Source: Escherichia coli
GTDB taxonomy: Bacteria; Pseudomonadota; Gammaproteobacteria; Enterobacterales; Enterobacteriaceae
Length of the DNA: 64,000 bases
Reading direction: 5' to 3' (one strand)
NCBI RefSeq assembly: GCF_003334335.1
Contig: NZ_QOWQ01000012.1
This document shows positions 34,207 through 34,235 of the stretch, in pieces. The notes under the pieces are model-generated. The model did no database searches, had not been told where the DNA came from, and saw only the letters and a program-made list of their open reading frames with translations. The position numbers were made by a program, and so were the translations under genes. Every line of letters begins with the position of its first letter. Within the stretch, counting starts at the first letter, position 1.

Positions 34207-34235
34207 TTGAAATTATTCTCCCTTGTCCCCATCTC
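34207..34235 (+). promoter_or_regulatory. sigma32 heat-shock promoter of htpG
   Basis: -35 CTTGAAA (34207-34213), 14-nt spacer, -10 CCCCATCT (34228-34235), ~50 bp upstream of the htpG ATG; matches the sigma32 consensus CTTGAAA/CCCCATnT. Confidence 0.8.

Follow-up and report, generated by a model that had tools for sequence, protein, structure and literature searches.

The sigma32-like motif just ahead of htpG in this stretch of Escherichia coli DNA is almost certainly htpGp1, the sigma32 (RpoH)-dependent heat-shock promoter of E. coli htpG. This assignment is supported by a perfect consensus match, by the transcription start recorded in RegulonDB, by a 5' end found by Cappable-seq, by published reporter and ChIP-exo work and by conservation of the site, and nothing counts against the promoter itself. 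Its sigma32 dependence and its induction by stress are taken from the literature. An earlier sequence-only reading of the same DNA had proposed that htpG possesses its own canonical sigma32 promoter, and this is borne out by the match, the mapped starts, the literature and the conservation. The window, as we use the term, is the whole stretch of DNA that was analysed, 64,000 nucleotides long.

The genes apt, dnaX, ybaB, recR, htpG, adk and hemH follow one another in this order, all on the plus strand, according to the open reading frame list and the RefSeq annotation. A segment of 801 bases surrounding the site occurs in 5424/5426 complete E. coli genomes, and over 251 bp, starting at the end of recR and reaching into htpG, there is no difference from K-12 MG1655. 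Window positions are converted to NC_000913.3 by adding 460,834, and to the older U00096.2 by adding 460,058. In E. coli ER1709, ybaB is annotated as a frameshifted pseudogene (RefSeq record, L001 2844-3172). The features at and around the promoter are the following.

33571-34176, plus strand: recR coding sequence, stop codon TAA at 34174-34176 (open reading frame list and RefSeq annotation of the identical E. coli sequence)
34182-34205, plus strand: hairpin with stem CGAGAGCAGG / CCTGCTCTCG and loop ATCA (fold, covariation)
34206-34212, plus strand: -35 element of htpGp1, CTTGAAA, 7/7 to sigma32 CTTGAA(A) (direct reading and pattern search)
34208, plus strand: 3' end of recR mRNA, at the second T of CTTGAAA (Term-seq position 495042, converted)
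34213-34226, plus strand: spacer of 14 nt, TTATTCTCCCTTGT (direct reading and pattern search)
34227-34234, plus strand: -10 element of htpGp1, CCCCATCT, agreeing at 7/7 specified positions of CCCCATNT
34241 (C, RegulonDB) and 34242 (A, Cappable-seq), plus strand: transcription start of htpGp1 (two published maps)
34236-34250, plus strand: reported htpGp2, with a -10-like TCCCACAT at 34236-34243 and a start at 34250 (RegulonDB 494308); doubtful as a separate promoter
34242-34285, plus strand: 5' leader of htpG, about 44-45 nt, with the Shine-Dalgarno sequence GAGG at 34273-34276 (sequence)
34286-36160, plus strand: htpG coding sequence, bacterial Hsp90 chaperone (open reading frame list, RefSeq annotation)
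36164-36195, plus strand: canonical intrinsic terminator after htpG, a 13-bp stem followed by TTTCTTTT (terminator scan)

The published sigma32 consensus reads CTTGAA-N13-17-CCCCATNT (PMC4263515), and the 14-nt spacer of the htpG site falls inside the accepted range, quoted there as 13-17 nt and given as 13-15 nt in the sequence-only reading. That reading had described CTTGAAA with a 14-nt spacer as a near-perfect match; on recounting, the strings and the spacer were found to be right and the site scores 14/14, whereas the interval given for it, 34207-34235, lies 1 nt too far to the right and has to be corrected to 34206-34234. When both strands of the 64-kb window were searched for CTTGAAA-N13-15-CCCCATNT, a single match was obtained, and the pattern occurred in 0/100 dinucleotide-preserving shuffles of the window. 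A graded sigma32 scan, in which spacers of 12-16 nt were allowed and sites were scored out of 14, ranked the htpG site alone at 14/14, the runner-up reaching 12/14; 30 block shuffles contained no site of 14/14 and produced sites of 13/14 at 0.1 per shuffle. From the -10 element to the ATG of htpG, both on the plus strand, the distance is 51 nt. The promoter was reportedly first described by Cowing et al. in 1985, for the C62.5 heat-shock gene, and it belongs to those from which the sigma32 consensus was defined.

Two published maps place a transcription start at the appropriate distance. In the RegulonDB list of RpoH promoters, which we took from the table reproduced in PMC5493296 (S2 Table), htpGp1 stands at 494299 with the codes HIPPIW, IDAIS and TIMIS, transcription initiation mapping among them, and this position corresponds to 34241 in the window. 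Cappable-seq, which captures 5'-triphosphate ends only and whose table is given in U00096.2 coordinates, detected a primary 5' end at 494300 on the plus strand (window 34242) (RRS 125.2, enrichment 4.2); the cells came from M9 glucose cultures at 37 C and had not been subjected to heat shock. With the RegulonDB and Cappable-seq starts, the distance from the -10 element to the start amounts to about 6-8 nt, so that the mapped start fits this element and leaves the promoter of the sequence-only reading unrefuted.

Dependence on sigma32 is documented by several published lines of work. PhtpG-lacZ is a standard reporter of sigma32 activity (PMC3866087), and under expression burden the htpG promoter shows one of the strongest inductions among sigma32 promoters (Ceroni et al., bioRxiv 10.1101/177030). 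By RpoH ChIP-exo (PMC9104697), one RpoH site predominates at htpG, in place of the multiple sites reported formerly. The paper on in vitro transcription by ROSE concerns the sigma70 holoenzyme only, and htpG is absent from its text.

The promoter is conserved far beyond E. coli. Species-representative genomes were scanned with a degenerate back-translation of the enterobacterial HtpG N-terminus, which retrieved 120 loci, 116 of them with upstream sequence long enough for analysis. A sigma32 match of at least 12/14 was present at most 160 nt from the htpG start codon in 114/116 Enterobacterales species, and in 71 it was perfect; in the two exceptions (L022 and L069) the motif is located farther upstream, behind insertions. 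The first six bases of the -35 element, C, T, T, G, A and A, are kept in 113-114/114 species and the last A in 108/114, while in the -10 element CCCCA is kept in 108-114/114, the T at position 6 in 91 (C in the others) and the final T in 106. Expressed as information content, conservation amounts to about 2 bits at each position of CTTGAAA and CCCCA and to 1.3-1.5 bits at the two T's of the -10 element. Spacer positions mostly hold less than 0.6 bit each. In 77 species the spacer measures 14 nt, in 38 others 13 nt; its length is conserved and its sequence degenerate. A secondary peak of information coincides with the C-A of the start site (C in 92/114, A in 98/114 species). Such a footprint is what purifying selection on a promoter should leave. 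At loci L010, L012, L022, L044, L069, L079, L081 and L113, recR is separated from the htpG promoter by insertions of 50-200 nt in which long hairpins abound; they may be REP- or MITE-like elements, and the sigma32 promoter is intact in the species that have them.

RegulonDB also contains htpGp2, and htpG might accordingly be served by two independent, overlapping sigma32 promoters with starts at 34241 and 34250. Both entries carry transcription initiation mapping evidence (PMC5493296), the separated htpG1 and htpG2 were both burden-responsive on a plasmid according to Ceroni et al. (bioRxiv 10.1101/177030), and the -10-like TCCCACAT, which agrees with the consensus at 5/7 positions, is located 6 nt upstream of 34250. 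However, no -35 element for htpGp2 is found at spacings of 12-17 nt, where the best string reaches 2/7, and Cappable-seq lists no start at 494308 in its 37 C data. Nor is TCCCACAT conserved, CCCTCA occupying its place in most species, and ChIP-exo (PMC9104697) speaks for one predominant RpoH site at htpG. Position 34250 moreover falls within the T-run GTTTTTAA, and a 5' end mapped there could plausibly reflect RNA processing or a stop of primer extension. We therefore regard a second independent promoter as unlikely; instead of a promoter, the htpGp2 start may represent a processed end, and the evidence favours one real promoter, htpGp1, over the two database entries.

Downstream of the start, the htpG leader appears unremarkable in structure. 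An RNA thermometer or otherwise structured leader was considered and rejected, as the leader folds no better than its shuffles (z = +1.16), and Rfam gave no match in 34000-34450. A scan for sigma70-like promoters returned none in the recR-htpG spacer. Minor Cappable-seq starts are located inside the leader at 34260 (RRS 3.2) and 34270 (RRS 10.1); the latter is preceded at 6 nt by TAAAAT (34258-34263) and could be a weak start of the sigma70 type.

The hairpin that the sequence-only reading had noticed between recR and the -35 element was confirmed by folding. It starts 6 nt past the recR stop codon and consists of the core stem-loop GAGAGCAGG-ATCA-CCTGCTCTC at 34183-34204, which is extended to 10 bp by the pair C34182-G34205; the gap between its 3' arm and the -35 element is 1 nt, or 0 nt if this pair is counted. 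Together with its flanks it folds at -22.6 kcal/mol (z = -6.0), and 0/200 shuffles were equally stable. Among the orthologous loci, recR is the upstream neighbour in 107/116, and in 72 of these 107 species the end of the hairpin is no more than about 2 nt away from where the -35 element begins; the end of the 3' arm lies -1 to +2 nt from the element in 71/72, one species deviating more. The abutting hairpins comprise 64 different sequences with a median stability of about -15.5 kcal/mol. In 57 species the distance from the recR stop codon to the -35 element is exactly 29 nt, and the 75 species in which this gap is at most 31 nt have a median z of -4.6. We take the clade with the abutting hairpin to be the Enterobacteriaceae plus the Erwiniaceae, by family assignment of the genera.

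Covariation points to selection on the structure. RNAalifold returned no consensus for the alignment of 51 sequences, owing to Pantoea and Erwinia stems that lie in a shifted register, and we instead folded each species individually and counted pairs in a fixed register. In the ungapped alignment of the 51 distinct orthologous sequences, the ten stem pairs were formed in 74.7% of cells, compared with 61.5% in shuffles, and 9/10 pairs displayed double-sided changes. Neither the observed pairing nor the covariation score was reached by any of 500 shuffles, and every slid register scored lower. By these comparisons the hairpin structure is selected and is kept by compensatory changes.

A genuine 3' end of recR transcripts lies at the hairpin. 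Term-seq (Adams et al. 2021, PMC7815308, supplementary file 1) assigns to recR a 3' end of class 'primary' at NC_000913.3 495042, with a mean of 1798 reads, a modest count for an end that has one listing across the supplementary files. With intrinsic terminators the recR hairpin has in common a GC-rich stem of 9-10 bp, a loop of 4 nt, its position directly behind a stop codon, and a mapped 3' end of the RNA 3-4 nt beyond the stem. In contrast to them it is without a U-tract, because the -35 element occupies the position where the U-tract would be: the E. coli tail, GCUUGAAAU / GCTTGAAAT, contains 2-3 T in 8 nt, and the 8 nt past the stem hold 2-4 T in all 75 species of the short-gap class. It is hence not a canonical intrinsic terminator, and a simple terminator scan did not call it. 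A role as a terminator for the minus strand was considered and rejected as a general explanation; the minus-strand tail is T-rich (4-5/8) in the Enterobacteriaceae but not in the Erwiniaceae, and no minus-strand gene reads into the hairpin.

The close contact between hairpin and -35 element raises the question of whether the hairpin, beyond forming the recR 3' end, takes part in promoter regulation, as a DNA cruciform or as an RNA element that tunes sigma32 binding. Its abutment to the -35 element in 71/72 species and the 29-nt distance in 57 are nearly fixed despite 64 different hairpin sequences, and in E. coli RNA UUUUUAAGC (34171-34179, including the recR stop codon) can pair with GCUUGAAA (34205-34212), which contains the -35 string. 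Yet in 35 other species, Yersinia, Serratia, Pectobacterium, Dickeya, Rahnella, Hafnia and Edwardsiella among them, 26-65 nt lie between the hairpin and the promoter downstream of it, which is conserved equally well, and some of these hairpins have a true T-run; the promoter therefore does not require the hairpin. Furthermore, the hairpin always stands behind the recR stop codon, where Term-seq finds the recR 3' end, and a single ancestral compaction of the spacer can explain the adjacency in one clade. A regulatory function of the hairpin is thus quite improbable in our view, and it is rather doubtful that its fusion to the -35 element represents a selected dual-purpose element and not mere spacer compaction. 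If it did, such an element could couple upstream transcription to the htpG promoter by insulation, by occlusion or by a structure-dependent leak.

A related proposal, that htpG mRNA stems mostly from read-through of dnaX-ybaB-recR and that the sigma32 promoter contributes only under stress, appears very improbable. All the genes lie on the same strand with short gaps between them, and leakage is plausible since the hairpin, without a U-tract, is expected to terminate inefficiently. The only plus-strand Cappable-seq starts listed between dnaX and htpG, however, have an RRS of 3.8 and 10.3, compared with 125 for htpGp1 in unstressed cells at 37 C, a difference of more than 10-fold. In addition, the recR 3' end found by Term-seq coincides with the hairpin, and read density steps up 10- to 1000-fold across the htpG promoter on induction (Ceroni et al., bioRxiv 10.1101/177030). 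As the upstream starts are this much weaker and recR transcripts end at the hairpin, any read-through from dnaX-ybaB-recR, which the sequence-only reading had suggested as an additional route, probably contributes little to the htpG mRNA at 37 C. The SMRT-Cappable-seq supplementary data mention neither htpG nor recR and so provide no long-read evidence on the point. The two upstream starts, at 33043 (RRS 3.8) and 33131 (RRS 10.3), are both located in dnaX and are probably internal promoters that feed ybaB-recR; a sigma70-like TTGAAC-17-GATAAT (33008-33036) within the 3' part of dnaX precedes the former by exactly 7 nt.

The phylogenetic footprint and the mapped start refute the view that the motif is a chance consensus match devoid of promoter function: agreement with a consensus is by itself no proof of function and weaker sigma32-like strings of 11/14 do exist within genes of the window, but shuffling never generated 14/14, a strong primary 5' end follows the -10 element at the expected spacing of about 6-8 nt, and both elements are near-invariant in the 116 species while the sequence between them is scrambled.

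Several other strings in the window resemble sigma32 sites. The second-best one, GTTGAAG-N13-CCCCATGT (12/14; 57505-57478, minus strand), lies in the 60-bp spacer between ybbO and cnoX (ybbN), and its -10 element ends 32 nt ahead of the cnoX start codon (57445); the RegulonDB promoters ybbNp1 (window 57656) and ybbNp2 (window 57734) do not coincide with it. Upstream of ppiD, the motif CTTGTGG-N12-CCCCGTTT (976-1004) scores 10/14, and the RegulonDB start of ppiDp1 converts to 1004, just 2 nt past the -10 of this motif, a geometry that fits poorly. A string at the end of dnaX, CCCCATTT (33160-33187 region), is a sigma32-like match of 11/14, and Term-seq maps a 3' end onto it, in the last dnaX codons (NC_000913.3 494017, window 33183).

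In the best-supported reading, E-sigma32 recognizes CTTGAAA as the -35 and CCCCATCT as the -10 element, 14 nt apart, and initiates at C34241/A34242. The product is a monocistronic htpG mRNA whose leader measures about 45 nt and which ends at the strong terminator at 36164-36195. Output of htpGp1 tracks the amount and activity of sigma32, being basal at 37 C and rising with heat or protein-misfolding stress. The GC-rich hairpin just upstream of the promoter marks the 3' end of the dnaX-ybaB-recR transcripts, so that htpG is largely its own transcription unit; to some degree the hairpin presumably insulates the gene from upstream transcription.

The promoter was already known and experimentally mapped, and our analysis adds nothing new on the biology of htpG. 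It illustrates that a textbook sigma32 promoter can be recognized from sequence alone, and it fixes the exact coordinates in the window of a promoter that serves as a standard sigma32 reporter and as a burden sensor. The comparative addition is modest: the promoter is near-invariant in the Enterobacterales, and in one large clade a covarying recR hairpin abuts its -35 element.

Compared with known systems, the site does not differ from htpGp1 of E. coli K-12 as described in RegulonDB/EcoCyc; the sequence is the same, the start agrees, and the two are the same object. The other candidates in the window are weaker than the perfect htpG site, with 12/14 for cnoX/ybbN and 10/14 for ppiD. Like the sigma32 promoters of dnaK, groES, ibpA, clpB and lon, the htpG site is built of two blocks with the same spacing, and the start lies equally far from the -10 element.
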